From positions 1,472,001 through 1,536,000 of the forward strand of contig CBDDIJ010000005.1 of NCBI GenBank assembly GCA_965228855.1: a stretch of 64,000 nucleotides of DNA. The letters are read 5' to 3'. The stretch is from Candidatus Obscuribacterales bacterium (GTDB taxonomy: Bacteria > Cyanobacteriota > Vampirovibrionia > Obscuribacterales > Obscuribacteraceae). Position numbers and translations under genes: made by a program. The notes under the pieces are model-generated. The model was not told the origin of the DNA and made no database searches. It saw only the letters and a list, made by a program, of their open reading frames with translations. Shown one piece after another: positions 18,002 through 37,114 of the stretch; position 1 is the first letter of the stretch; each line of letters starts with the position of its first letter.

Positions 18002-18117
18002 TGTTTGAAGCTGCCCGAGATCATAAAGTTGTCATATAGACCTAGAGGTGTCGTTCGTCACCTCACCTGCCAAATCATACGTAACTAGCTCATAGCCGTT
18101 TCAGCTGGTTGTTTTTA

Positions 18118-20373
18118 ATGACAGAATCCCTCGCCGCCGGCGACCAACATTTCGAATCAAGTATGCCTGTCGACAAACAGGCCGCGCTTAAGGACAACGT
18201 GTGGCTCAGACACGCGATGACCGAGGTTAATCTTACTAGAGCCCAGAAATTTGACAGGGACAACTCCGCCAGCGCCACCGACTTGTTGCTGGAGGCCGGT
18301 CACAGCCTCGTCTATCAAGGCGGGCAAGCTTGGGTCACCAGCCTTGCGCAGCTCGTCGACGACGCGACCGGGAGCGGGACGAAATACGCTGACATGGTTT
18401 CGATTGTGCAGCGACCACAGGAAGCGGAGTACCAATCGAGCCGTTGGTACGCGCAGCAAGTCGGTGCCGGCATCGGCTTCGCCGCGCCCTTTGCACTGGC
18501 GCACGGTGCGCTCAAGTCATCAGGTCTTTCGCTTGCAGCAAGAACGGAACAAACAATCGCATCCACCGGGAGATTATTCTCCTCGGCAAACGGTATCCGT
18601 CTCGCCGATGGAGCAATCACCGGATTCGTCGCAGATTTCGCCCTGCGACCGCTGGACGAGCACGAAGAAAATCACCTGATCGCGCGCACCAAAAATGGTA
18701 TCACCGGTGCCGCTGTACTGTCGACAATGACAGCAGGGTCTCTGGGATTGAGAACGGCGAGTCGCTCATTTGCAGCGGCTCTTGCAGGCGAAGGCGTAAC
18801 CAAACAAACCGGTCGCATGATTTACGACGGAAGCATAGGCGCGTTGTCTGGTATTCCCGGTGGTGCGGCAAGCGCTCATACTCATTCGCTTATAAACGAA
18901 GGACGACTGGCTTCCAGTGAGGAAGTTTCTCAGTCCATCTATGCAACCGCCTGGACCGGTGGAGTTCTCAGCGCCGGTCATGTAATCGGAAGAGATCCCA
19001 AAGTTCTCACACCCGCGGCACCGAAAGAGTTCGAACTGCGGGGCTTGAACAAGTATCGATTCAACAAACGCGAAACTGTTTTGGAAAAAACACTTGGCGC
19101 CATCGGTGATGCCCATGCGAACACAAAGTACGCAGTTCGCGATGGAGTCGAGTCGGCAAGAGGAACGACCTATTCGTTTCTAAACAAGTACGATTTGCGA
19201 CATCCCGTCCAACGGGCTCGCGAATTCCTCCGCACACCGGAGGTCGAGCAACCACGCGCCCCTCTCACGAAGGAGAACAATCCGGTAGAAGCCTTTGAAC
19301 GCGAGTTACCCAGGTACATCAAAGATATCGAAGCGAAAGAAATAGAGATGGAGAGCACGAAGGACCGCGGCGAATCCTATGAGCGCTTCAAAGAGATGCG
19401 AGACATTCGCACAAATTTCGCAGCCAGAATGCTCGACATGTGGAACGGAACCGAAACATCTCCAGGCATCCGCCAGCTCACCGATGCACAGCTAGCGACG
19501 ACGGACGTTCCCGTGCAACGCGTGGCTGAGATTCGAGCAGCATTCACTAAACCGGCTCGCGCAGAGAGTTATAGCAGCACAAGCCCACTCACAGAAGCAT
19601 TGTTGAAACTGTACGGCAAAGAAACCGACGTCGACTATCAACATCTTGATGTTCTAGGAGAAATCGAGTATGCCAAGCAAAAGCACTATGGATTCTCGGT
19701 AGATGAGATGGTCAAACGAATGCAAATGCCCCGAAATCACTCGATCAAAGATCATGAAGGTGACACGCCTGTAGATTGGATGCCTAACAAGAGAACTGCA
19801 GACAATGCAGACTTCTATCATGGAACCGTGTCCGGCAGCCTATCTTCGATCATGGTGGAGAGAACGCTTCTGCCTCCAGGCGAGTTACGCTTGCGCGGCA
19901 TCAAACAAACGACCGGCGAAAGCGCTAATGAAAGCCTGCACAGGAAGAACGTTTCCATAACTCGCGATTTCAACGAAGCATACGCCTATCATCGCCACAG
20001 TCCGGCGAGCCTCACGGATTTCCCTGTCATATACGGCATCTCCCGCGATGTCGCCCCGCGTTCGCGCCTGGCTGGAATGCTAGAACGAGGAGAACTTCTT
20101 GTTCCAAAGCTGGGGCTCGGCGAGAATACCGCAGTCAAACTCGGTTTAAAAACTCAAGACATCACTCACATGTTCGTTCCCGATACGGAAGTACCGACGG
20201 TGCAGCGGATGCTGCGCAATCACGCCATCGGCGGCATCGATGTCGTCGGTTTCGGCAACATGAAAAAGCCTGAGTGGATTCCAGAGGCCGCTCCGGTGTA
20301 CGACGAACACGGCTTTCGGGTAATCGACCAAACAGCGGATAAACTTGGTCAAACACCGGCGCACGCATTCTAA
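18118..20373 (+). CDS. Effector-like protein: Gly/Ala-rich hydrophobic N-terminal half and C-terminal ADP-ribosyltransferase-like domain
   Basis: FYHGT..SLSSI....LLP, VSITRDFNEAYAY, PVIYGI, GELLV pattern; ORF certain, function inferred. Confidence 0.6.
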   Translation: MTESLAAGDQHFESSMPVDKQAALKDNVWLRHAMTEVNLTRAQKFDRDNSASATDLLLEAGHSLVYQGGQAWVTSLAQLVDDATGSGTKYADMVSIVQRPQEAEYQSSRWYAQQVGAGIGFAAPFALAHGALKSSGLSLAARTEQTIASTGRLFSSANGIRLADGAITGFVADFALRPLDEHEENHLIARTKNGITGAAVLSTMTAGSLGLRTASRSFAAALAGEGVTKQTGRMIYDGSIGALSGIPGGAASAHTHSLINEGRLASSEEVSQSIYATAWTGGVLSAGHVIGRDPKVLTPAAPKEFELRGLNKYRFNKRETVLEKTLGAIGDAHANTKYAVRDGVESARGTTYSFLNKYDLRHPVQRAREFLRTPEVEQPRAPLTKENNPVEAFERELPRYIKDIEAKEIEMESTKDRGESYERFKEMRDIRTNFAARMLDMWNGTETSPGIRQLTDAQLATTDVPVQRVAEIRAAFTKPARAESYSSTSPLTEALLKLYGKETDVDYQHLDVLGEIEYAKQKHYGFSVDEMVKRMQMPRNHSIKDHEGDTPVDWMPNKRTADNADFYHGTVSGSLSSIMVERTLLPPGELRLRGIKQTTGESANESLHRKNVSITRDFNEAYAYHRHSPASLTDFPVIYGISRDVAPRSRLAGMLERGELLVPKLGLGENTAVKLGLKTQDITHMFVPDTEVPTVQRMLRNHAIGGIDVVGFGNMKKPEWIPEAAPVYDEHGFRVIDQTADKLGQTPAHAF

Positions 20374-23135: not shown

Positions 23136-23462
23136 ATGTCTACGGTGGCAAATGTAACCGATGCAACCTTCGAACAGGAAGTTCTGAAGGCTGATATCCC
23201 GGTTCTGGTAGACTTCTGGGCCCCTTGGTGTGGTCCTTGTAAGGCGGTAGCGCCTGTTGTAGAGGATTTGTCCAAGGATTTCGCAGGAAAGATCAAGGTA
23301 GTCAAATTGAATACCGATGAGAATCCTAAGACGGCTCAGGCGTATCACATAAGAGGCATTCCAAGCCTTTACCTGTTCAAATCCGGACAGGTTGTCGAAC
23401 AAGTGGTTGGAGCGGTTCCGAAGTCGACACTGGCTTCGGCGATCAACAAGCACGTAGGTTAA
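23136..23462 (+). CDS. trxA: Thioredoxin
   Basis: [27 protein letters not shown]. Confidence 0.96.
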
Positions 23463-23534
23463 GACGAAGGCTCCCTGAATCAATTCGAATCCGCGTATCG
23501 ACGCGGGTCTGTTTTGACTTGATTGAGAAAAAAG

Positions 23535-24038
23535 ATGCCGCGCATAATCACGCAAACACTCACGGCACTGGCGACTCTCGTAGTCGCCAGCGCTTCTGTA
23601 CCCGCGGACTTCTTGGGAACCGCAATCGCAGCGGAAACCGACGGCAAGCTCATAGCCGCGAAGTCTAAGAAGAAGAACAAGTCCGACGGAGATGCATCCA
23701 AAGGCGGTTCGAACCCAGGTGGCGTGCTGGACGTCACCGACAAGACCTTCTCAAAGGAAGTCTTGAAATCCAGCAAACCAGTTCTCGTAGACTTCTGGGC
23801 TCCCTGGTGCGGTCCCTGCCGCATTCAAGGTCCCATAGTCGAAGAGACGGCTGCAGAGCTCGGTGGGAAGATGAAGTTCGTCAAACTCGACACCCAAACC
23901 AACCCCGAGGTCGCGTCGAAGTACGGTATCACCGGCATTCCCGCCATTTATGTGTTCAAGAAGGGAAGAGTCGTTGAACAGGTTGTCGGTCTGAGACCAA
24001 AAGAACAACTTTTGGAGCTCGTGAAAAAGCACATCTAG
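23535..24038 (+). CDS. Thioredoxin with N-terminal signal/anchor and Lys-rich linker
   Basis: Hydrophobic N-terminus ending [20 protein letters not shown]. Confidence 0.9.
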   Translation: MPRIITQTLTALATLVVASASVPADFLGTAIAAETDGKLIAAKSKKKNKSDGDASKGGSNPGGVLDVTDKTFSKEVLKSSKPVLVDFWAPWCGPCRIQGPIVEETAAELGGKMKFVKLDTQTNPEVASKYGITGIPAIYVFKKGRVVEQVVGLRPKEQLLELVKKHI

Positions 24039-24092
24039 ATTGACGCTCGCAAGAGCAATTCACAAACATACTACACAAGGGGAACGAAGGTT

Positions 24093-24617
24093 ATGAACTC
24101 AAACAAGGTTTCGGCAGCAACGTTGCTGGCTTGTTCACTCCTGGTCACAGGATTTCTCGCTCCTGATGCCGCGCTCGCAAAGAAGAAAGCGAAACGCGCA
24201 GTTAGCCAAGGCAACGATATCGTTGAAACAGCTAAGAAAGACGGTTCATTCAAGAACTTGAGCGAAGGTCTTTCGTCCACCGGCCTGTCGAAAACCTTGA
24301 AGTCCAAAGGACCTTTCACTGTTTTCGCTCCTAACGATGAAGCATTCGGCAAGCTTCCCAAAGACAAGAGAGAAGCACTTCTCAAAGATCCTAACGTTCT
24401 CAAATACCACGTAGTCAAAGGTATCGTTCCTGCCGACGCGCTCAAAGAAAAGCGCTCAGTAGCCACGGTTCAAGGCGAGTCGTTGATGGTTGACACCAAA
24501 AACGACGGCGAAGTCATCGTCGTTGACGGCGCTATCGTCACGAAGCCCGACATCAAATGCAGCAATGGGGTTATCCACGTAGTTGACTTCGTGCTTGTAC
24601 CAGAGCGCGGTAAGTAA
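24093..24617 (+). CDS. Secreted fasciclin (FAS1) domain protein
   Basis: Signal peptide; GPFTVFAPNDEAF, LKYHVV, NGVIHVVDFVL. Confidence 0.94.
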   Translation: MNSNKVSAATLLACSLLVTGFLAPDAALAKKKAKRAVSQGNDIVETAKKDGSFKNLSEGLSSTGLSKTLKSKGPFTVFAPNDEAFGKLPKDKREALLKDPNVLKYHVVKGIVPADALKEKRSVATVQGESLMVDTKNDGEVIVVDGAIVTKPDIKCSNGVIHVVDFVLVPERGK

Positions 24618-24655
24618 ATAGAAGCGTGCACGGAAACACTGCATATGGGAATATT

Positions 24656-24686
24656 AAGGTAGGTCGCAAGACCTACCTTTGTTTTT
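24656..24686 (+). terminator. Rho-independent terminator after the fasciclin gene
   Basis: AAGGTAGGTC-GCAA-GACCTACCTT followed by TGTTTTT. Confidence 0.85.
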
Positions 24687-24700
24687 ATTGAGGGAAGTCC

Positions 24701-25240
24701 ATGAAAGAAATGTTCGTTGCCTTCATCATCGCGTTGGTGGCAGGTAGCGTTTGGAATGGCATGAGAGGCGACCAAAACCTCGGAGCTCTTGGTGACACCA
24801 TGAGCGGTGCCGCTGGCGGCATCGCTGGAGGAGGAGCGCCTGCAGCGTCCCCAAATTTAGAACCGAGCCCGCAATCGCTGGCTGGCCAACAGATAATTGC
24901 GGACGTGGATGAAGGCAGTTTTCAGGGAATTGTATTGGATTCAAACGAACCTGTGCTCGTGGAGTTCTACACAGACAATTGCCCGCACTGCAAAAAGATG
25001 GCGCCCGTGCTTGGTCAGCTTGCCTACAATGGTCAAGGTGTAGTGACTCTTTGCAAAATCAACGCAGCCAAGGCGACCTCAATAGCTGAAAGATACAATG
25101 TTTTGGGAGTACCAGCTTTCGCACTTTTCGTAGATGGTCACTTGATTGATTCGACTTCAGGTGCACGAACATTTGAAGATCTTCGAAGTTGGCTCAGCAT
25201 CAATAACGTATCGGTCCCGGCCGTTGCTCCACAATCATAA
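24701..25240 (+). CDS. Membrane-anchored thioredoxin-family protein, CPHC active site
   Basis: N-terminal TM, Gly/Ala/Pro linker, VLVEFYTDNCPHCKKM, VLGVP. Confidence 0.88.
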   Translation: MKEMFVAFIIALVAGSVWNGMRGDQNLGALGDTMSGAAGGIAGGGAPAASPNLEPSPQSLAGQQIIADVDEGSFQGIVLDSNEPVLVEFYTDNCPHCKKMAPVLGQLAYNGQGVVTLCKINAAKATSIAERYNVLGVPAFALFVDGHLIDSTSGARTFEDLRSWLSINNVSVPAVAPQS

Positions 25241-25343
25241 CGTCAAAGAAAAGTTCGAGATGACGGACAGAAGCGTCAAACGGAGTTACGATTAAGGGAA
25301 ACAGATAGGTCTACCGTCATAGAGACGCAGGAGCAGATAATCA

Positions 25344-25598
25344 ATGAGACGGGCGTTTATATTTGCATTCCTATTTGCCCTTGTGGTGTCGTGCGCGTTC
25401 GGACAGACGGCCCATTATAGTTACGGCGTACGCGTTTCTGATGTCATCAACAATCCAAACTACCCAGGGAAGATCGAAGAATGGCAAATTGGCGAAATCG
25501 ATATCAAGGATCAGAATGCACCGAATAGATTGATTACGGGAGTAGCGGAAAACGGCGACAGGGCACGCACACCATTTCCTTTCCGTATGAATAATTAG
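25344..25598 (+). CDS. Small exported/membrane protein, weakly like the FtsH periplasmic domain
   Basis: AGGAG RBS, signal-like MRRAFIFAFLFALVVSCAFG; GKIEEWQI..ITGVAENGDRARTPFP. Confidence 0.6.
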   Translation: MRRAFIFAFLFALVVSCAFGQTAHYSYGVRVSDVINNPNYPGKIEEWQIGEIDIKDQNAPNRLITGVAENGDRARTPFPFRMNN

Positions 25599-25628
25599 AG
25601 ACCCAGTCAGCAACAAGGAAAAACGCAA

Positions 25629-28600
25629 ATGAAAACGTGGGCTAGATGGACGCTGTTAGTACTATGGACGGTGCTGCTGATTGTAACGTCAGAGTACTGG
25701 AATCCGTTCACATCATTCCCTGCTCTGGCGAAATATTCCATCACGGCCGTAGTATCTTCAGCCATATTCGGCGTTTTAGTGATGATTGCGCAGTTCTTCA
25801 TACTGATAGCAGTCATTTTTCCGCTCCCTCCTCGGGCTGACTCGAAAGCAAAAAAAACAATTCTCAGAAAGATGTTTTCGTTCGTGTTCAAGGATCCACC
25901 GATTAGTCCAAAAGCGCCGAAACTACTCGACGAGTTGATTGGAAACGAGAAAGCGAAAACAGAAATTCGCGAAGTAATCGACATGCTTAAGAATCGGGAA
26001 CACTATGTCGCTTCAGGTGCCGAAGTTCCGAAAGGTATGCTTTTCATTGGTCAGCCTGGAGTCGGCAAAACCTTATTTGCAAGAGCTATTGCGAATGAGG
26101 CGGACATTCCATTCTATGTCGTCGAAGGGAGTGCATTTAGTGGCGTCATCTACGGCTTAGGTGTCTTCAAACTAAAAACCCTTTTTCGAAAACTCCGTGA
26201 GCACAAGCAAGCAATCCTGTTCATAGATGAAATTGAATCTATGGGTTCGAGAAGAAAAGAAGACCGAGGAATGGGTGCTCAAGCGGATCAAAACATCACG
26301 CTTAACACATTGCTTACGGAAATGGATGGTTTCCACGGAAGTCGTTTGCTGATTATCGGAGCCACCAACAATGACTCAATGCTCGATCCGGCTCTTATGC
26401 GTGCAGGACGGATGGAACGTCGCATTTACTTCCAACCCCCCACAGGTACGGAGCGAAAGCAACTTCTCAAATACTACATAGGAAAAGTCGCCCATGCGGA
26501 CGACATTGACTACGATGAAATCGTTGAGTTGACAGCGAATTACAGCCCCGCCGAAATCTCCAGTGTGGTTAACGAAGCCGCACTCGTTTCACGCAGACCG
26601 GGTGGCGAAAACAAGGTCACGACCACAGCTCTGAAATTGGCGCTGGAGAATGTTACCGTGGGCACTGAAAGGACCTTAACTTCCGGTGTTGAGCTCATTG
26701 CTCACGATCCGACTATAAGGTTTGACGACGTGATTGGTATCGATGACGTAAAACAAGACCTAGTTGAGATCGTTGATTTTCTAAAACGGGGAGATGACCT
26801 TAGAAAAATTGGCGCGAAGATTCCGAAAGGCGTCATCATGATCGGACCACCTGGAGTAGGAAAGACTCTTCTGGCCAAAGCCATCGCAAACGAGGCTGGC
26901 GTGCCATTTTATGGACTATCTGCAAGCTACTTCTCTAGCTTCCTCGCCGGGGAAGGCGCCGCACGTATTCGTGCTTTATACAACCAAGCCAGAAAGAACC
27001 CGGCATCAATTGTATTTATTGACGAGATTGACGCCGTCGGTGGAACAATGACCGAGACCGGGACCAAACGCACAACCGAACTAAATCAAATACTGGTTGA
27101 GCTCGATGGCATAGGACGCAGCAACGTAATAACCCTGGCCGCAACTAACGCTGAGCAAAATCTCGATCCTGCGTTCATGAGGTCCGGGCGATTCGATCGC
27201 AAAGTATACGTTGGACTTCCGGATTCAAAATCGAGAAAGGCTATGTTTACTCGGTATCTATCGAAAGTAAAAATGGCGGCAGAGGTCGATTTAGACAGAC
27301 TTGCTAAAGCCTCATTCAACTTCTCTGGAGCTGACGTGGCAGCGTGCGTGAACGAAGCAGCAATGCTCGCTGTGAGAAGCGGAAAAACTGAGGTTGATCA
27401 AGAGTCTCTGGAAGAAGCGGCGATAAAAGTTTCAGCGACCGCCGGCCATAAGCTGAATACAACTGGTATCAGTATGTCTAAAGTGCCTGACTTAGAAGTA
27501 AAGTTGGATGACTTGAAGGGCATCGACGAGGCGAAAGCAGAGGCTGCAGAAGTTGTTGCGCTCTTGAAAAACGCACATATCGTTGAAAAAAGCGGTCTTA
27601 AGTCGCCCAAGGGCATTCTCCTTTCAGGACCACCTGGAACCGGTAAGACCATGCTAGCCAAGGCAATCGCTAATGAGGCAGGCGTACCGATTTATGCTCT
27701 ATCCGGTACGGATTTCGTTCAAGTACTCGTCGGTCTAGGTGCTCAGCGTGTTCGGGCCGTGTACGAGATGGCAAGACGAAGTGGCAAACCAGCTATCGTT
27801 TTCATCGATGAGATTGATGCAATTGGAAGCAAACGAGCACATGACACTGGCGGTGGGGGACAAAACGAGGTAAACCGCACCCTTAATCAGTTATTGACGG
27901 AGATGGACGGCTTTGGAAAACATAAAGTGTTGACCATCGGTGCAACGAACGCTCCGGATATGCTCGATCCGGCTCTATTACGCGCGGGAAGGTTTGATCG
28001 AGTCATCGACGTACCTCTTCCCAACCTGGAAGGCCGTGAAGGAATTCTTCATCACTACTTGAAGAACCTTCAACTCGACGCGTCCGTCAACATTTTGGAA
28101 ATCGCCAGGATGACCGTATTTTCGGCAGGCGCAGAACTAGCGAGCATAGTGAACGAAGCTGGATTAATCGCAATTCGTCACGGTCGTTTGAAAATCACTC
28201 AACCAGATATGATTCAAGCAATTCAAAGGGTGCGCTTTGGATTAAATCGCAGCCAACATATCAGTCTTAGAGATCTTTGGGAAACCGCCTACCATGAAGC
28301 TGGACACACGATGGTGGCGTATTATCGAGACCAACTAGAACGCATTCAAGTCGTGACTATCATTCCCACGGGGCGAGCTTTGGGATACATGTGGTCGGTG
28401 GCTAAAGATGACCGTTTTCATCACTCACCGAATAAACACGAATTGCTAGTGGACATCGAAGTAAGTTTAGGCGGCTATGTCGCCGAGCACATGCGTATGG
28501 AGACTAACACCGCCGGAGTGAGCGCAGACCTGGACAACGTAGCTCGTGTCGCAGCTTCCATGATTCGGGAATACGGCATGGGTTCCTTCAAGTTCAACAC

Positions 28601-29006
28601 ATACACAGCGATTTCGAATCCATCAGCGGAAACTAGTAGAGAGATTGAGCTTGAAATTAAGTCTATCGTAGACGGTTGCCTGGAGAACGTAGAAAATCTG
28701 ATTCGCACAAAACGAGCGGAGCTAGATAGGCTCGCTACGGCTCTGGTCGAGAAAGAGACTCTGTATTATGCTGATATTGTGCAAATTCTCGAACCGACGA
28801 AGACAAACGAAGAAATTCAAAGAGAGGTCGAAGCTGTGTCAGAGCGAAAACTCGTCGGTAAGAGACCTGTGATTGACATGGACTTTCTAGCTGGAGTTTC
28901 GAGCATTGGACGAAACGGAAAAAACGGCTCCAACGGAACCGGGCTAAACCCACTTGGTCTACCGGACACAGATATCGACTTGAACAATCGGGATGGTAAT
29001 AGCTAG
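25629..29006 (+). CDS. FtsH-like ATP-dependent zinc metalloprotease with three tandem AAA+ modules
   Basis: N-terminal TMs; Walker A at aa 141, 406, 667, each with hhFIDE and an SRH (LDPAxxRxGR); M41 domain TAYHEAGH, LGGYVAE, GVSADL. Confidence 0.93.
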   Translation: MKTWARWTLLVLWTVLLIVTSEYWNPFTSFPALAKYSITAVVSSAIFGVLVMIAQFFILIAVIFPLPPRADSKAKKTILRKMFSFVFKDPPISPKAPKLLDELIGNEKAKTEIREVIDMLKNREHYVASGAEVPKGMLFIGQPGVGKTLFARAIANEADIPFYVVEGSAFSGVIYGLGVFKLKTLFRKLREHKQAILFIDEIESMGSRRKEDRGMGAQADQNITLNTLLTEMDGFHGSRLLIIGATNNDSMLDPALMRAGRMERRIYFQPPTGTERKQLLKYYIGKVAHADDIDYDEIVELTANYSPAEISSVVNEAALVSRRPGGENKVTTTALKLALENVTVGTERTLTSGVELIAHDPTIRFDDVIGIDDVKQDLVEIVDFLKRGDDLRKIGAKIPKGVIMIGPPGVGKTLLAKAIANEAGVPFYGLSASYFSSFLAGEGAARIRALYNQARKNPASIVFIDEIDAVGGTMTETGTKRTTELNQILVELDGIGRSNVITLAATNAEQNLDPAFMRSGRFDRKVYVGLPDSKSRKAMFTRYLSKVKMAAEVDLDRLAKASFNFSGADVAACVNEAAMLAVRSGKTEVDQESLEEAAIKVSATAGHKLNTTGISMSKVPDLEVKLDDLKGIDEAKAEAAEVVALLKNAHIVEKSGLKSPKGILLSGPPGTGKTMLAKAIANEAGVPIYALSGTDFVQVLVGLGAQRVRAVYEMARRSGKPAIVFIDEIDAIGSKRAHDTGGGGQNEVNRTLNQLLTEMDGFGKHKVLTIGATNAPDMLDPALLRAGRFDRVIDVPLPNLEGREGILHHYLKNLQLDASVNILEIARMTVFSAGAELASIVNEAGLIAIRHGRLKITQPDMIQAIQRVRFGLNRSQHISLRDLWETAYHEAGHTMVAYYRDQLERIQVVTIIPTGRALGYMWSVAKDDRFHHSPNKHELLVDIEVSLGGYVAEHMRMETNTAGVSADLDNVARVAASMIREYGMGSFKFNTYTAISNPSAETSREIELEIKSIVDGCLENVENLIRTKRAELDRLATALVEKETLYYADIVQILEPTKTNEEIQREVEAVSERKLVGKRPVIDMDFLAGVSSIGRNGKNGSNGTGLNPLGLPDTDIDLNNRDGNS

Positions 29007-30192
29007 CGTGGTGCGTCCAGCATCACTCAAGTTTGGCTATTTAGCTTTATGTTGGTTCGCCTCGTCCCTAAATTCACCTACGTTCGCGAATAGTCTGACC
29101 GTAGCGAAGGTAGAACCTTTCAACCTTACCAGCGCCTTTCGCTCCCACCCGGGACCCTGGAGCGGCGCTGACGGCGCCTATTCCATACGGTTGAACGACG
29201 GCACGGCGATATGGACGTTCGGCGACACCTTCATCGGCAAGGTAGAGAACAACAAGCGTTCCGCAGATACGAAGATGGTCAACAACACGGCTGCGATTCA
29301 ATCATCGCAATCGCTGGACCTGCAATTCATCTGGTCGGGAACGAAAGAAAAACCGTTCTCCCTCTGGCGACCGACGGAGCCGGACACCTATTACTGGCCG
29401 GGTGATGGTATCGCTTTTGATGGCAAACTGTTTTTGTTTTTACACAAGATAAAAACGGACAAGACTCGGCCGGAACCGTTTCAATTTAGAACGCTGACTG
29501 ACACAATTGTTCGCATCGATAATCCGCTCGACAAGCCTGATCAATGGCGGATGAAGTATACGGAACTGGGCAACGATGCCGAGAAGCTGCAGTTCGGCAC
29601 TGCCACTATCAGCGATGGCAACTACGTCATGGTATTTTGCAGCTACCCGACCCGGAGAGAAGGACTGAATATTCACCCGGTGATTCTTGCCAGAATTCCA
29701 AAAGACAGTCTGCAAGCGCTAAAGGTTTCAGACTTTGAGTATTATTGTTCGAAAAATGAAAACGATGAAGTAACGTTTTTCTGGTCCAAGCAGGCTAAGG
29801 ATCCGTTTATTCTATTCAGCGACGGCGCGCCAGAAATGTCAGTCACAAAACTGTCCGGTATCGGCGGAGAACCGCAGCATTCGACTAAGAACGATGGCAC
29901 CTTAGACCGTTATGTGATCGTATACATGCCGCCTTTGACTCGAGAAATTGCCATTCGCCAGGCACGAAAACTGACCGGGCCGTGGAGCGAAAAAATAAAA
30001 ATCTACGATTGCCCTGAGAAAGATCCGGAAATTTTTCAGTACAGCGCCAAGATGCACCAGGAGCTCGCGAAACAGCCTGGAGAGCTGATTATCACTTATT
30101 GCAGAAACGCTAAAAACTTCCAGACGCACTTCGACAACGCATCGGTTTATTACCCGCAAGCAATTCGCGTGCAGCTCAAAACTGGCGATTGA
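28993..30192 (+). CDS. Secreted DUF4185/DUF5005-like beta-propeller protein
   Basis: WSGADGAYSI, WTFGDTFIG, YYWPGDG, LTGPWS, YSAKMH; overlaps the protease stop by 14 nt. Confidence 0.75.
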   Translation: MVIASVVRPASLKFGYLALCWFASSLNSPTFANSLTVAKVEPFNLTSAFRSHPGPWSGADGAYSIRLNDGTAIWTFGDTFIGKVENNKRSADTKMVNNTAAIQSSQSLDLQFIWSGTKEKPFSLWRPTEPDTYYWPGDGIAFDGKLFLFLHKIKTDKTRPEPFQFRTLTDTIVRIDNPLDKPDQWRMKYTELGNDAEKLQFGTATISDGNYVMVFCSYPTRREGLNIHPVILARIPKDSLQALKVSDFEYYCSKNENDEVTFFWSKQAKDPFILFSDGAPEMSVTKLSGIGGEPQHSTKNDGTLDRYVIVYMPPLTREIAIRQARKLTGPWSEKIKIYDCPEKDPEIFQYSAKMHQELAKQPGELIITYCRNAKNFQTHFDNASVYYPQAIRVQLKTGD

Positions 30193-30231: not shown

Positions 30232-31260
30232 TCAGGGGTTAAACGCGAACAAAAACGTTGTGATGAAATTGAAGCCGCAGTGCCCGATCATCGTAGTCGT
30301 CGTGTTGGTGAAACGCCTTGCGATACCAAAGACTATCGACCAGAGTGCTACCTGAATTATCAAAGTGGGCGCATGTGAAAACTGAGCGTGGAGCACTCCG
30401 TGCAGTAACGCGGCTGGAACGATTCCCAGTGCCGGCTGAAGGGCGCCGCGCGTCATGGTTTCCTCGCCGACACCCGCACAGATTGCCACGAAAAGCGCGA
30501 TCACAATTGACGCAGACAGATCGCCGCCGGTCGCGAATGTCCCGGAGTTGTATCCCGAGATCTTGGTCGCCATGTCCTGACCCGGCTGAGCGTGCGTGTA
30601 GAGCGACCAGACCAGATCGTAAACGAAGCTGAACACAATGAGCCCCACCCCAACTCCGACCTGCGGCCAGGTAGGTTTCTCCCATCCCAGGCGCTTTAGG
30701 GCGCTCTTCCAGTCACGGCTTACGAAGAGTCCAACCCCGCTGAAGCTCAACAGGACCAGACCCAGTCCGTTGTACGAAAAGATCTGAGACAGTTGAACGG
30801 GCATCGGCAATGGAATTGCAGGGAAGTCAAAGCCTCCGGGATTAATCGTTTGCATGAAGTAACCCAGCACGGTGATATATATGAACATGCCGGTCAAATG
30901 CGGAAAAGATGTTGGAATGAACATCACCCAGTCATTCAGGGCTTTGGTCCAGGACATCTTGTGACGGATTGGTCCGGTCAAGACACGCAGGGAAACCAGC
31001 CCGTCAAGAGGGGTCAGGACTGCCGAAATCGCCCTCCTTCCCCAGTAGAACAGAATGACAACGGTCGATACGACCATCGTGACCAGGACGTTGTTTGAAA
31101 ATGACGAATTGTTCGCACCAATGGTCACCAGCGACAGTTCGAACAAAATTACAAAAACGATAAGCGTTCTGATCAGCCACTTCAAACCGTTAACTTTCAC
31201 GGCGCCGTGACCAAGTAATGCTAAGACTGATACAAAGGTGACAAGAATGAAATCTGACAA
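30232..31260 (-). CDS. CPBP (Abi/CAAX type II) intramembrane protease
   Basis: Polytopic; GVGEETMTRG, HGVLH, GHCGFN. Confidence 0.85.
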   Translation of the reverse strand: MSDFILVTFVSVLALLGHGAVKVNGLKWLIRTLIVFVILFELSLVTIGANNSSFSNNVLVTMVVSTVVILFYWGRRAISAVLTPLDGLVSLRVLTGPIRHKMSWTKALNDWVMFIPTSFPHLTGMFIYITVLGYFMQTINPGGFDFPAIPLPMPVQLSQIFSYNGLGLVLLSFSGVGLFVSRDWKSALKRLGWEKPTWPQVGVGVGLIVFSFVYDLVWSLYTHAQPGQDMATKISGYNSGTFATGGDLSASIVIALFVAICAGVGEETMTRGALQPALGIVPAALLHGVLHAQFSHAPTLIIQVALWSIVFGIARRFTNTTTTMIGHCGFNFITTFLFAFNP

Positions 31261-33883: not shown

Positions 33884-35749
33884 TTAGAGAGCCGATAAAT
33901 ACTGAGCTATATATCGATGAACAGCTTCCCAGGCGGTTCCTGCCTGCCGACGCCCCACCCATTCGCGCTCGACTTGTCGAGAACCAGCTGGCCAAATCCT
34001 GGACGGACGCAGGGTCGCCAGGTCTTCATCGTTGTTGAATTGAATCATAGAGCCGTCGCGACCGTAGAAGCGAAACTTACTAGCCTCGGTGCTCGCGAGC
34101 CAATCTCCAAACCGGCGGTATCCGGCCGGCTGACTCTCCTGAAGCTTTTGAAACCGCGTAACCATGCGGAAGCCATCGCTGGTGAGAAGGGCAGTCAAAC
34201 TGTTCCAAGCACCGCTTGCGTCCTCGAGAATTCGGCGCTCAATATGAATGCCGCGCAGTACATCAAGGCTCCAGAACTGTCCGTCGAACTTTCTGATACT
34301 CACACATCCATTCGCGTCGACTGTCATCGAATCGCCCTGTGCGCGCACCGCTCCATGCTCATCGCGCACCACGACACCATGCCGGTCCTTGATGCCGGTA
34401 GTGAAAATTTTTCCTCTTGCATCGGACCGCACAAACGATTTGAAGTGCCCCTTCTCATCGTAAGAGCAGCTCATCGTCGCGCCGTCGAAGGCGCGCACTT
34501 CGGTCACTCGACCAACTGCATCTTTGATGATGAAGGAACCGTCGCGGTAGACCTCGCGCCGCATGCCGGCAGCCATTGCGATAACGGTTACCGACTCTAT
34601 ACGACGAACCTCTTTTGTTCTTTTACGTGATTGCAGCTGTTTTTTCGCAACCGCCCCACGAAGATTGCGCGCGCCGAAGTCAGGCATGGTTTCTTGATTA
34701 GAAGAGAAAGCGAGATTTCCCTCACTGGTGAACTCAGCGGTTTGCTCAACGCTTTTTTTGTTGCGATAGTTGCGCACCAATTCTTCCCGCCGTTTAGCAT
34801 GGAAATCGGCATGCGGCAATTCATCAGCTTCTTCAACATGCTCGACGTGCTCTCTGTCGAACCACTCGTTGAGCAAAACCGCCAGATGCGAAATAAACTC
34901 GTCACCCTCTTTTTCGACTGCCGGATTATTGGCGAGCAGTTCCGCCGCGCGCTCGTTCATCGAGACTGGCTCGACATCAACCTTCGGAACGTGCGTGCCA
35001 CGATGAATGTTTTGGGCGATCTCGCTCACAACTACGCTATCAACTTCGTAAACCACAGCGGACTCGCTATGAGTCTCCAGGTCCTGGGGACTACTCACGA
35101 TCAGTTGATCGATAAACGCCTGACGCTGTCGCGAAGCTCTCGCCATCAACTCGGCGAGTTCCTCTTCGGGAGCCGTTTGGCAAGCCTCGGCAAGCGCCTG
35201 GATGTCATCGAGCACTTCGTTAGCATTTCCAAAGTCGAAATGCTGATGGGTTTGAACGTGCTGTACTGCTTCGACCGGACCGGCAACAGTCTCATCGATA
35301 GTGATGGCGAACGGAAGATCTTCCAGCGCCGACACAGGCGCATTCGGTTGCAGCCAGTCCCATTGATTCTTTGCCGCAGGATCGAAATTGTGTTGCGCAG
35401 GTGGATTGAAGTTCGTTTGACTCGCGTCAAAACCTCTGCTCAGATTTTCGGATAACGCCTGCGAGTGCGTTCCTCCAGCCTGACTGTTTTTTCGCTGAGC
35501 GCTATCTATAAGACGTCGATTGACTATCGAGGGAACCTGAGCAAACTTCGGAACCGGCGTGTTGTCCAGAAGTGCACGCTCACCTTGTGAGGCGCTTTTC
35601 GAAAGGAAGTTCAGCAGACGGCGATATTCGGCACCACCGGAAGACCGGACCGCGCGACCAGAGGCACGCAATTTGTGCCGTGGTAATTCAACGGGGAGAC
35701 ACAACCCATCGGGCTCCAAAGACATCGTCCGCTCATCCCCAAACCGCAT
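33884..35749 (-). CDS. Hypothetical protein; acidic low-complexity middle, beta-rich YD-repeat-like C-terminal domain
   Basis: 621-aa ORF; DAVGRVTEV..SYDEKGH..DEHGAV..DANG repeats; start uncertain. Confidence 0.7.
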   Translation of the reverse strand: MRFGDERTMSLEPDGLCLPVELPRHKLRASGRAVRSSGGAEYRRLLNFLSKSASQGERALLDNTPVPKFAQVPSIVNRRLIDSAQRKNSQAGGTHSQALSENLSRGFDASQTNFNPPAQHNFDPAAKNQWDWLQPNAPVSALEDLPFAITIDETVAGPVEAVQHVQTHQHFDFGNANEVLDDIQALAEACQTAPEEELAELMARASRQRQAFIDQLIVSSPQDLETHSESAVVYEVDSVVVSEIAQNIHRGTHVPKVDVEPVSMNERAAELLANNPAVEKEGDEFISHLAVLLNEWFDREHVEHVEEADELPHADFHAKRREELVRNYRNKKSVEQTAEFTSEGNLAFSSNQETMPDFGARNLRGAVAKKQLQSRKRTKEVRRIESVTVIAMAAGMRREVYRDGSFIIKDAVGRVTEVRAFDGATMSCSYDEKGHFKSFVRSDARGKIFTTGIKDRHGVVVRDEHGAVRAQGDSMTVDANGCVSIRKFDGQFWSLDVLRGIHIERRILEDASGAWNSLTALLTSDGFRMVTRFQKLQESQPAGYRRFGDWLASTEASKFRFYGRDGSMIQFNNDEDLATLRPSRIWPAGSRQVEREWVGRRQAGTAWEAVHRYIAQYLSAL

Positions 35750-35851
35750 GCCCCATTCGGAGCGCCTGCGTTAGCCATATTCGGCAATATATTAACATTC
35801 AACCCGCCGAAACGCAGCTGAGAATAACGTTACCGAAATTTCTACGAAAGT

Positions 35852-36268
35852 CTACTATATCCCAGCGTATCAGCCAAGTCCAGCAAGCTCGAAGCAGTGG
35901 GGCTTTCGAGGCATCTACTATATCCCGGCGTATCAGCCAAGTCCAGCAAGCTCGAAGCAGTGGGGCTTTCGAACGCATCGGCAACTCAAGCACCTCGCAA
36001 AGATGGACTTTGGCTATCCCACAGCGCCGGAATTCGCGAAAAGCGTCATTCCAGGATAGCCAAAACATTCCTACTATATCCCAGCATATCAGCCAAGCCC
36101 ATCAGACCCGACCAGTTGGGGCATTTGACAGTCTCGGCATTTCCAGCACCTCGCAAAGATGGACTTTGGCTATCCCACAGCGCCGGAATTCGCGAAAAGC
36201 GTCATTCCAGGATAGCCAAACATTCCTACTATATCCCGGCGTATCCGCCAAGTCCGACAGTCCGACAA
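35852..36268. repeat. Mosaic intergenic tandem repeat: 30-bp motif x4 (spacing 63/156/155) and an ~80-bp hairpin segment x2
   Basis: CTACTATATCCCRGCRTATCMGCCAAGYCC at 35852, 35915, 36071, 36226; TTTGGCTATCC..GGATAGCCAAA at 36009-36064 and 36165-36220. Confidence 0.92.
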
Positions 36269-36289
36269 GCTCGCGACAGGCTGACGCCG

Positions 36290-37114
36290 CTAATACTTGG
36301 GCGGCGGTGTTTCGGTCGAAAGCCAGCCACGGACCTGTAGCGACTCCGCCATCCGGATGCCGGTGGTGCGCTCGTCGAACATCGCGACGGCAAACTGCCC
36401 CATCGTGATTTTGTTCGCAGACAGCAAGTATTCTGCCAACTGCAAAGACTTCATTTCCGGATCGGTGACATAGCCGGCTTGCAGAACCAGGTCCACCAGC
36501 GGAATATCCGGATAGAGATTCATCTGGTTCTTCAACGCCTGAACTTCGGCTGGACCGATGAATTGCGCCTGCTTGAGCAGGTCGATGAGCATCGGAACAG
36601 ACTCTTGCAGCGGCTGCGTCGTAACCATTTGACGCTCGGCAATTTGCTCGACCACCGGCGCAACCGGCATCGGCGCCTCGATCATCTCGAGCGTTCCATC
36701 CTCAGGAATCACATGGCTCTCAACCAGTGCGCCCCGCGCCACGATCAGGTCGTGACTGAGCCTCAAACGCGGCTTTCTCAGAATGAAACCGGCGTTGAGC
36801 AAGCGATAATAATCTTCTTTCAGATCCTTCGGCGACGGATGCTCGCGAAGGAAACGCTTGATCGCCTTGAAATACGCAGCCAGCACCATGCTGGGATTCA
36901 CGTCACAAGCGATTTCCAGCAAGTCGTAGTAGTTGCTTGGGATGTCTACTTGCTCGCTCTTGGGCGGCGGCAACAAGTCAGGAAACAGCTGATACAGCTC
37001 CTGACACGCTTTGACCATGCCAGTTGCATCAGTGTCAGCCCAGCTTTGACGCAAGGCGGCACAGAGAATCTGGCTCTCGAGTTCTATCCGGTTTGCTCCA
37101 CCAGGACTAGCCAT
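36290..37114 (-). CDS. Degenerate J-domain fused to MshEN/T2SSE_N-like repeats
   Basis: NYYDLLEI..AAYFK..HPS..LRKPRLRLSHD; LIDLLKQAQFI, LVDLVLQAGYV, RMAESLQVRGWL. Confidence 0.65.
   Translation of the reverse strand: MASPGGANRIELESQILCAALRQSWADTDATGMVKACQELYQLFPDLLPPPKSEQVDIPSNYYDLLEIACDVNPSMVLAAYFKAIKRFLREHPSPKDLKEDYYRLLNAGFILRKPRLRLSHDLIVARGALVESHVIPEDGTLEMIEAPMPVAPVVEQIAERQMVTTQPLQESVPMLIDLLKQAQFIGPAEVQALKNQMNLYPDIPLVDLVLQAGYVTDPEMKSLQLAEYLLSANKITMGQFAVAMFDERTTGIRMAESLQVRGWLSTETPPPKY

Follow-up and report, generated by a model that had tools for sequence, protein, structure and literature searches.

A predicted FtsH-family protease with three tandem AAA modules, conserved across the order Obscuribacterales

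To our knowledge, the characterised FtsH proteases use one ATPase ring, while among ring unfoldases characterised so far either a single ring or two are present; our literature search showed none with three. The available parts of two reports (PMC12994072, 10.1101/2020.02.28.969766) describe the standard FtsH as a hexamer of single-AAA chains, and the accessible portion of another article (PMC2674469) describes FtsH in its single-AAA form only. In the present study, we analysed a window of 64,000 nucleotides (nt) from a Candidatus Obscuribacterales bacterium (assembly GCA_965228855.1, contig CBDDIJ010000005.1, positions 1,472,001 to 1,536,000), in which one gene encodes an FtsH-family protein with three tandem AAA modules (D1, D2 and D3) ahead of one peptidase M41 domain, hereafter the triple-AAA FtsH. 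Judged by its sequence, this protein is catalytically FtsH-like and departs from FtsH in the number of modules and in the missing periplasmic domain. On the whole, the evidence tips towards a triple-ring machine that is found throughout the order and would represent one of several FtsH lineages in which motor tiers (two, three, four or six) were added independently.

Compared with canonical FtsH and YME1/AFG3L2 (3kds, 2dhr, 7zbh, 6az0, 6nyy), the protein shared the N-terminal hydrophobic helices, the intact classic-clade AAA motifs and an M41 domain with HExxH and Asp; it differed from them in its three AAA modules per chain, the absence of a periplasmic domain and a shortened central loop in the protease, and its modules grouped apart from the single-AAA FtsHs of the same genome. 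The tandem classic-clade modules resembled those of type II AAA proteins (p97/Cdc48, VAT, Rix7/NVL, Drg1, Yta7/Abo1, Pex1/6, NSF/Sec18), and pairs of modules in the model superposed on their D1-D2 chains. Unlike these proteins, the triple-AAA FtsH has three modules, membrane helices in place of the N-domain and a protease in the same chain, and it scored 546 against TIGR01243 (CDC48 family), below the cut-off of 802.65. ClpA in ClpAP is similar by analogy, with stacked ATPase rings feeding a protease, whereas ClpA is a soluble protein whose two modules come from different clades and which works with a protease on another chain. The Ycf2-FtsHi chloroplast import motor is a heteromer of separate one-AAA chains and not a covalent repeat. 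Its FtsH-derived chains (8xks, 8xku, 8xkv) matched D3-M41 of our model. According to the accessible part of PMC7159879, a protein of the MoxR-vWA ternary system also has two FtsH-type AAA copies per chain, but its first copy is inactive, no M41 domain is mentioned there and the gene context is different. In the single-ring tandem AAA proteins dynein and midasin, the modules lie side by side. Adjacent modules of our full-length model matched stacked type II chains, a likeness that depends on the model, and a side-by-side arrangement may also apply. The uncharacterised multi-AAA FtsHs of Omnitrophota and Thermoleophilaceae are built in a similar way, with between two and six AAA modules in tandem followed by a single M41 domain. 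Their modules formed separate tree groups and vary in number, and the separate grouping indicated that the multiplications were likely independent between these lineages.

A literature search, with subscription journals and bioRxiv supplements outside its coverage, showed, among the titles and abstract openings listed, no account of an M41 protease carrying more than one AAA module. The initial annotation had known of no characterised triple-AAA FtsH, and none was found; it had also allowed that the architecture might prove common, which turned out to be partly so. The architecture was near-universal in one order, and FtsHs with two, three, four and six modules likely arose separately elsewhere.

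Catalytic residues and integrity of the gene

The profile searches recovered PF00004 three times, AAA_lid_3 three times and Peptidase_M41 once (PF01434, E 3.4e-38), and TIGR01241 (FtsH) scored 993.8 against a cut-off of 600, a score summed over three stretches. The Walker A motifs start at nt 26049, 26844 and 27627, with spacings of 265 and 261 amino acids (aa). Walker B (FIDE) was found at 26220, 27015 and 27801, sensor-1 (ATN) at 26361, 27141 and 27942, and one RxGR arginine-finger motif per module at 26397, 27177 and 27978; HEAGH and GVSADL of the protease lie at nt 28293 and 28515. The initial annotation had claimed three complete tandem AAA modules, and its motif coordinates were exact and the Pfam scan that it proposed gave the expected domains. 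Its N-terminal transmembrane helices corresponded to two hydrophobic helices (aa 3-24 and 34-63) in an AlphaFold2 model, the hydropathy peak being 2.92 over aa 32-70; helix 1 fell below the hydropathy threshold in the window protein and exceeded it in two of six family members tested. The limits of the two helices are separated by only about 10 aa, which leaves no space for a periplasmic domain, so the one of ordinary FtsH is missing. Among the features that define FtsH/M41 proteases, the membrane anchor, the classic AAA motifs, the M41 domain with HExxH and Asp and the TIGR01241 score were present, whereas the single AAA module per chain and the periplasmic domain were not.

To assess conservation, we relied on a protein search in which 8000 candidates were scored and the best 120 listed; the alignments of 121 sequences consist of the query and these 120. 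The Walker A Lys, the Walker B Asp and Glu, the sensor-1 Asn and both arginine fingers were conserved in 121/121 sequences in every module. The same was true of H889, E890, H893 and D967 in the M41 domain, where D967 corresponds by alignment to the third-ligand Asp in FtsH from Thermotoga; the one intact-looking M41 domain of the initial annotation, with its third zinc ligand in GVSADL, was thus well founded. From residue invariance alone, we infer that the triple-AAA FtsH would be an active ATP-dependent protease. The accessible parts of 10.1101/189316 and 10.1101/551085 report that each arginine finger works on the subunit next to it, and with the fingers invariant, every AAA module likely sits in a ring. 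The DGF motif, an inter-subunit signalling motif according to the available text of 10.1101/189316, was invariant in D1 and near-invariant in D3; in D2, its Phe was mostly replaced (F in 16/121). Linker length was fixed, as the anchor residues lay 55-56 aa apart in 121 and 120 of the 121 sequences. The pore-loop-1 aromatic at the canonical position was present in 39/121 sequences in D1, 83/121 in D2 and 119/121 in D3, and when the next position was allowed, these counts became 78, 88 and 119 of 121. In the window protein, L700 (codon CTC, 27726-27728) stands in place of the pore Trp found in 118/121 members. This substitution is likely real because it is common to P0002, a relative with 97% identity.

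The three modules are diverged copies, with pairwise protein identities of 37%, 42% and 44%, and the sole DNA repeat that they have in common was 23 nt at 70-78%. All 120 listed relatives were near full length (1043-1206 aa, 63-97% identical, covering 92-100% of the query), and a genome search found open frames of 1099-1184 aa in 42/46 orthologues. Runs X1 and X3 gave single contigs across 25000-29400 with 0 differences and flat depth, and these runs may be the window's own source. Two loci of the family (L008 and L030) are on closed or chromosome-scale records. D1-D2 was intact in one frame in 41/51 family loci, with six cut by contig ends and four by frame breaks. The idea of an assembly artefact, or of a duplication in decay, would find some support in the broken frames of 5/51 family loci (L010, L015 near the N-terminus, L041, L048 and L055) and in a TGA inside one genome match (G088), each of which may be a sequencing error or a pseudogene. 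Such an explanation is vanishingly improbable given the near full-length relatives, the open orthologues, the closed records and the separate tree group formed by each module, and it is already refuted for the family as a whole. These results agreed with the initial annotation, which had argued from divergence against an assembly duplication, and the misassembly that it had considered was excluded by the full-length relatives and by the orthologues in 46/49 genomes of the same order.

Distribution and origin of the modules

The named proteins among the 120 listed relatives were mostly from Obscuribacterales, and all 121 sequences of the family had three modules. On GTDB genome contigs, 55 loci were found, comprising 51 of the triple-AAA family and four ordinary FtsHs; the organism labels of some loci are odd (e.g., L012, L022, L034, L048 and L050) and may reflect mislabelled bins. 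When 200 genomes of the class were searched with D2, matches at 61-77% identity were obtained in 46/49 genomes of the same order, and the remainder were one genome with a partial match (G027) and two without a match. None of the 151 genomes of other orders gave a match above the level of ordinary FtsH (best E 5.7e-72 or weaker in 143, no match in eight). With D1 as the query, 0/300 other genomes drawn from the phylum matched at 1e-75. The window genome holds eight further single-AAA FtsH homologues on contigs C2, C3 and C5. Considering these homologues together with the 46/49 genomes of the order, the triple-AAA FtsH is an additional, order-wide paralogue and does not replace the housekeeping FtsH. 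Six of the eight homologues are on contig C2, and several have long N-terminal regions.

The origin of the modules was analysed with an unrooted tree of 62 chosen module sequences, which included three modules from each of four family members and six of the genome's eight single-AAA FtsHs. The other 44 modules were taken from 25 representatives. D1, D2 and D3 each formed one group (100/100, 100/100 and 100/99), and the stem branch of D1 was the longest of the three (0.82). The three groups fell within a 20-row group (98/85), along with a few one-, two- and three-module proteins and apart from the genome's own single-AAA FtsHs; a 172-row FastTree tree agreed. The per-module phylogeny proposed in the initial annotation thus placed each module in a distinct group separate from ordinary FtsHs. 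Since each module forms a single group across the family, the triplication likely took place before the order spread.

Multiplied AAA modules were also observed outside the family. Among the 150 best representatives at 50% identity, some of which are fragments or have decayed first modules, the number of AAA matches before M41 was two in 41, three in nine and four in two. In six other cases (Omnitrophota, Thermoleophilaceae, P0125, P0135, P0137 and P0144), the modules of one protein or family grouped together on branches starred in the tree, which suggests that the multiplication of AAA modules in FtsHs was likely repeated and independent. A search with a four-module Omnitrophota protein, whose ranking favours long forms, listed 120 proteins, of which 67 had two modules, 37 three, six four and one six; the remainder were six tandem whole FtsHs (AAA-M41-AAA-M41) and three proteins without M41. 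Pfam confirmed 4, 4 and 6 modules for three proteins of this family. One Omnitrophota-type protein of 1861 aa (P0307) has six AAA modules and one M41 domain. A search for proteins of >1970 aa gave 25 matches with no evident bacterial many-module FtsH, a weak negative based on names and Pfam lists. Also seen were proteins of 1400-2300 aa that lack M41 and have five or six AAA matches (P0136, P0147, P0150, P0154 and P0283-P0293); they could be single-chain rings, and some are named as SpoVK/Ycf46/Vps4-family ATPases.

Stacked rings or a shared ring

The initial annotation had offered two assemblies, a dimer forming one asymmetric ring and a three-tier hexamer, and these are the right pair to weigh. 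We lean to the hexamer over the dimer, and both assemblies are predictions. The more probable arrangement, in our estimate, is a hexamer with ATPase rings stacked in three tiers (18 sites) over one protease ring. The chain would likely be anchored in the inner membrane via its N-terminal helices, and six chains would build a membrane-anchored column with the three ATPase rings between the membrane and the protease ring. A substrate extracted from the membrane would thread through D1, D2 and D3 into the protease chamber. D3, beside the protease, would likely be the main pulling ring, with D1 and D2 auxiliary; the accessible part of PMC7568338 describes the D2 ring of ClpA as the main motor and D1 as auxiliary, and this analogy, together with the pore aromatic rising from D1 to D3, points to D3 as the main puller.

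The stacked hexamer was favoured because the catalytic residues, arginine fingers included, are invariant in every module, the full-length model stacks the modules, the ring-contact residues are kept and the pore aromatic is graded. The full-length AlphaFold2 model (115 rows) had a predicted local distance difference test (pLDDT) value of 81.6 and a predicted template modelling score (pTM) of 0.65. Its D2-D3 pair superposed on Rix7 (7t0v_F; Z 32.1, 4.6 Å, 498 aligned) and p97 (9ox9_A; Z 28.4, 4.7 Å, 488 aligned), its D1-D2 pair on Yta7 (7uqi_A; Z 23.3, 4.1 Å, 478 aligned) and Abo1 (6jpq_A; Z 18.3, 5.1 Å, 487 aligned), and D3-M41 on FtsH (3kds_F; Z 30.6, 3.5 Å, 420 aligned). The model thus predicted D1 on D2 and D2 on D3 in a type II-like stack, with D3 packed on M41 as in FtsH. 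A wide structure search had no dynein, midasin or RNF213 chain among the 50 matches listed, which excludes no arrangement. According to the available text of 10.1101/551085, M666, G671, E700 and R702 hold the protease ring of AFG3L2 together, and M666R abolished hexamer recovery. The equivalent contacts in the triple-AAA FtsH were inferred by spacing on the Thermotoga alignment, and the mapped positions were conserved as M984 in 121/121, G985 in 119/121, E1009 as E in 96 and Q in 19, and K1011 as K in 104 and R in six of 121 sequences. A complex prediction with four M41 copies (aa 872-1080) and zinc gave a score of 0.03 (mark 0.42) and was evidence for neither assembly.

Several observations weigh against the stacked hexamer. 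A model of D1-D2 only (36 rows) reached a pTM of 0.48 with linker pLDDT <50, so that the orientation of the modules was not fixed, and it did not superpose on type II chains (root-mean-square deviation of 18-20 Å); the full-length model may echo p97-like geometry learned by AlphaFold2. The M41 domain has a 4-aa deletion before the Gly that matches AFG3L2 G671, its central protrusion is shorter, and M984 may be retained for folding alone. M41 was also the least conserved catalytic domain, with 33% of columns at least 90% conserved versus 47-55% in the AAA modules. The window protein has no canonical pore-loop-1 aromatic in any module (I174, L439 and L700), a feature that the initial annotation had not mentioned, and the D3 exceptions are this protein and P0002, both with Leu. 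Among the 120 listed Omnitrophota proteins, chains with two, three or six modules made up 105 of the 111 with serial AAA modules and one M41, none had five, and the second module was decayed in 4/6 four-module chains; this dominance and decay would fit the tiling of a ring.

The main rival, which we regard as rather unlikely, is that two chains tile one six-module ring (D1-D2-D3-D1'-D2'-D3') as a natural covalent pseudo-hexamer that has just two protease domains and lacks a closed six-fold chamber. The prevalence in Omnitrophota of module numbers that divide six (67, 37 and one versus six four-module chains), the six tandem whole-FtsH fusions in the same listed family, the fixed linker length, the shortened M41 ring loop and the unstacked D1-D2-only model are consistent with such a dimer. 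Both module pairs are stacked in the full-length model, however, and the positions of the ring contacts in M41 are kept. The modules differ in how often they carry the pore aromatic, whereas in one shared ring all six positions would be expected to grip in turn. Moreover, 2/6 four-module Omnitrophota chains keep all four motif sets intact, which favours stacking because four modules cannot tile a six-slot ring. Less probable still, and doubtful to us, is a hexamer whose translocating ring on the protease is made by D3 alone or by D2 and D3; there, D1 would be a scaffold or adaptor, loosely tethered and gated by nucleotide, in place of the lost periplasmic assembly domain. The long stem branch of D1, its few canonical pore aromatics, the absent periplasmic domain and the D1-D2 orientation left free in the separate model agree with this arrangement, but invariant columns, among them both arginine fingers and DGF, were more numerous in D1 (70/249) than in D2 or D3, and this invariance points to ring-type ATP hydrolysis in D1.

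Genomic neighbourhood and implications

The features of the locus are collected in Table 1. Of the 38 loci with at least 3 kb of upstream sequence, all (38/38) had a histidine kinase gene in divergent orientation together with one or more thioredoxin-fold genes, and 32 had a fasciclin gene; the thioredoxin queries cross-match, so thioredoxin genes were not counted separately. In the window, three thioredoxin-fold genes lie around the fasciclin gene (23136-25240, + strand). The membrane-anchored thioredoxin has CPHC here and a single Cys at this site in several relatives (e.g., L017, L021-L023 and L030). The terminator-like hairpin after the fasciclin gene suggests one transcription unit of the membrane thioredoxin, the 84-aa protein, the triple-AAA FtsH and the DUF4185 gene. 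Terminator-like sites numbered 10 against 9.2 expected by chance, and the promoter scan, with 6 sites against 6.8 expected, did not rise above chance.

A short open reading frame (ORF) was directly upstream of the FtsH gene in 41/46 sequences (45 loci and the window); by eye, 40 of these resembled one another, the majority beginning with a hydrophobic segment, and the remaining one differed. The Pfam search assigned the 84-aa protein to no family, with a best E of 0.045 in 1/23, and there was no usable Atlas match. It could be a dedicated partner replacing the missing periplasmic domain.

Table 1. Features of the triple-AAA FtsH locus in the window
Feature	Position (nt)	Strand	Details
Thioredoxin-fold protein	24701..25240	+	CPHC; hydrophobic N-terminus; likely leads the transcription unit
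Terminator-like hairpin	24656..24679	+	After fasciclin gene; 10 pairs and T run; consensus match only
84-aa ORF	25344..25598	+	Conserved; hydrophobic N-terminus; ends 30 nt before the FtsH start; possible partner
Triple-AAA FtsH-family gene	25629..29006	+	Open ORF, 1125 aa; Pfam and TIGR01241
Hydrophobic helix 1 (aa 3-24)	25635..25700	+	Likely transmembrane; AlphaFold2 helix 3-24
Hydrophobic helix 2 (aa 34-63)	25728..25817	+	Likely transmembrane, followed by basic stretch; AlphaFold2 helix, hydropathy
AAA module D1 (aa 97-345)	25917..26663	+	K147, D200/E201, DGF 233-235, N247, R258/R261
AAA module D2 (aa 362-603)	26712..27437	+	K412, D465/E466, N507, R518/R521
AAA module D3 (aa 624-870)	27498..28238	+	K673, D727/E728, DGF 760-762, N774, R785/R788
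Peptidase M41 domain (aa 878-1056)	28260..28796	+	H889, E890, H893, D967; ring-contact positions M984, E1009, K1011
DUF4185 gene	28993..30192	+	Overlaps the FtsH stop by 14 nt; 19/51 loci

Further along the window, a gene for a CAAX/Rce1-like membrane protease (30232-31260, - strand; 10/51 loci) converges on the DUF4185 gene. Overlapping ORFs with repeated peptide blocks at about 35750-36300 suggest a degenerate DNA repeat between two genes, and two long ORFs had no Pfam match (18109-20373, +, 754 aa; 33884-35749, -, 621 aa).

From the thioredoxin, fasciclin and small exported genes beside it, a possible role in envelope protein quality control may be guessed. Either assembly, if true, would be new to structural biology, as a three-tier motor or as a covalent half-ring with two protease sites. 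Since the modules are distinct and in one chain, each can be inactivated separately, and this opens the coordination of stacked rings, the extra pulling force on membrane proteins and the need for six equal subunits to study.

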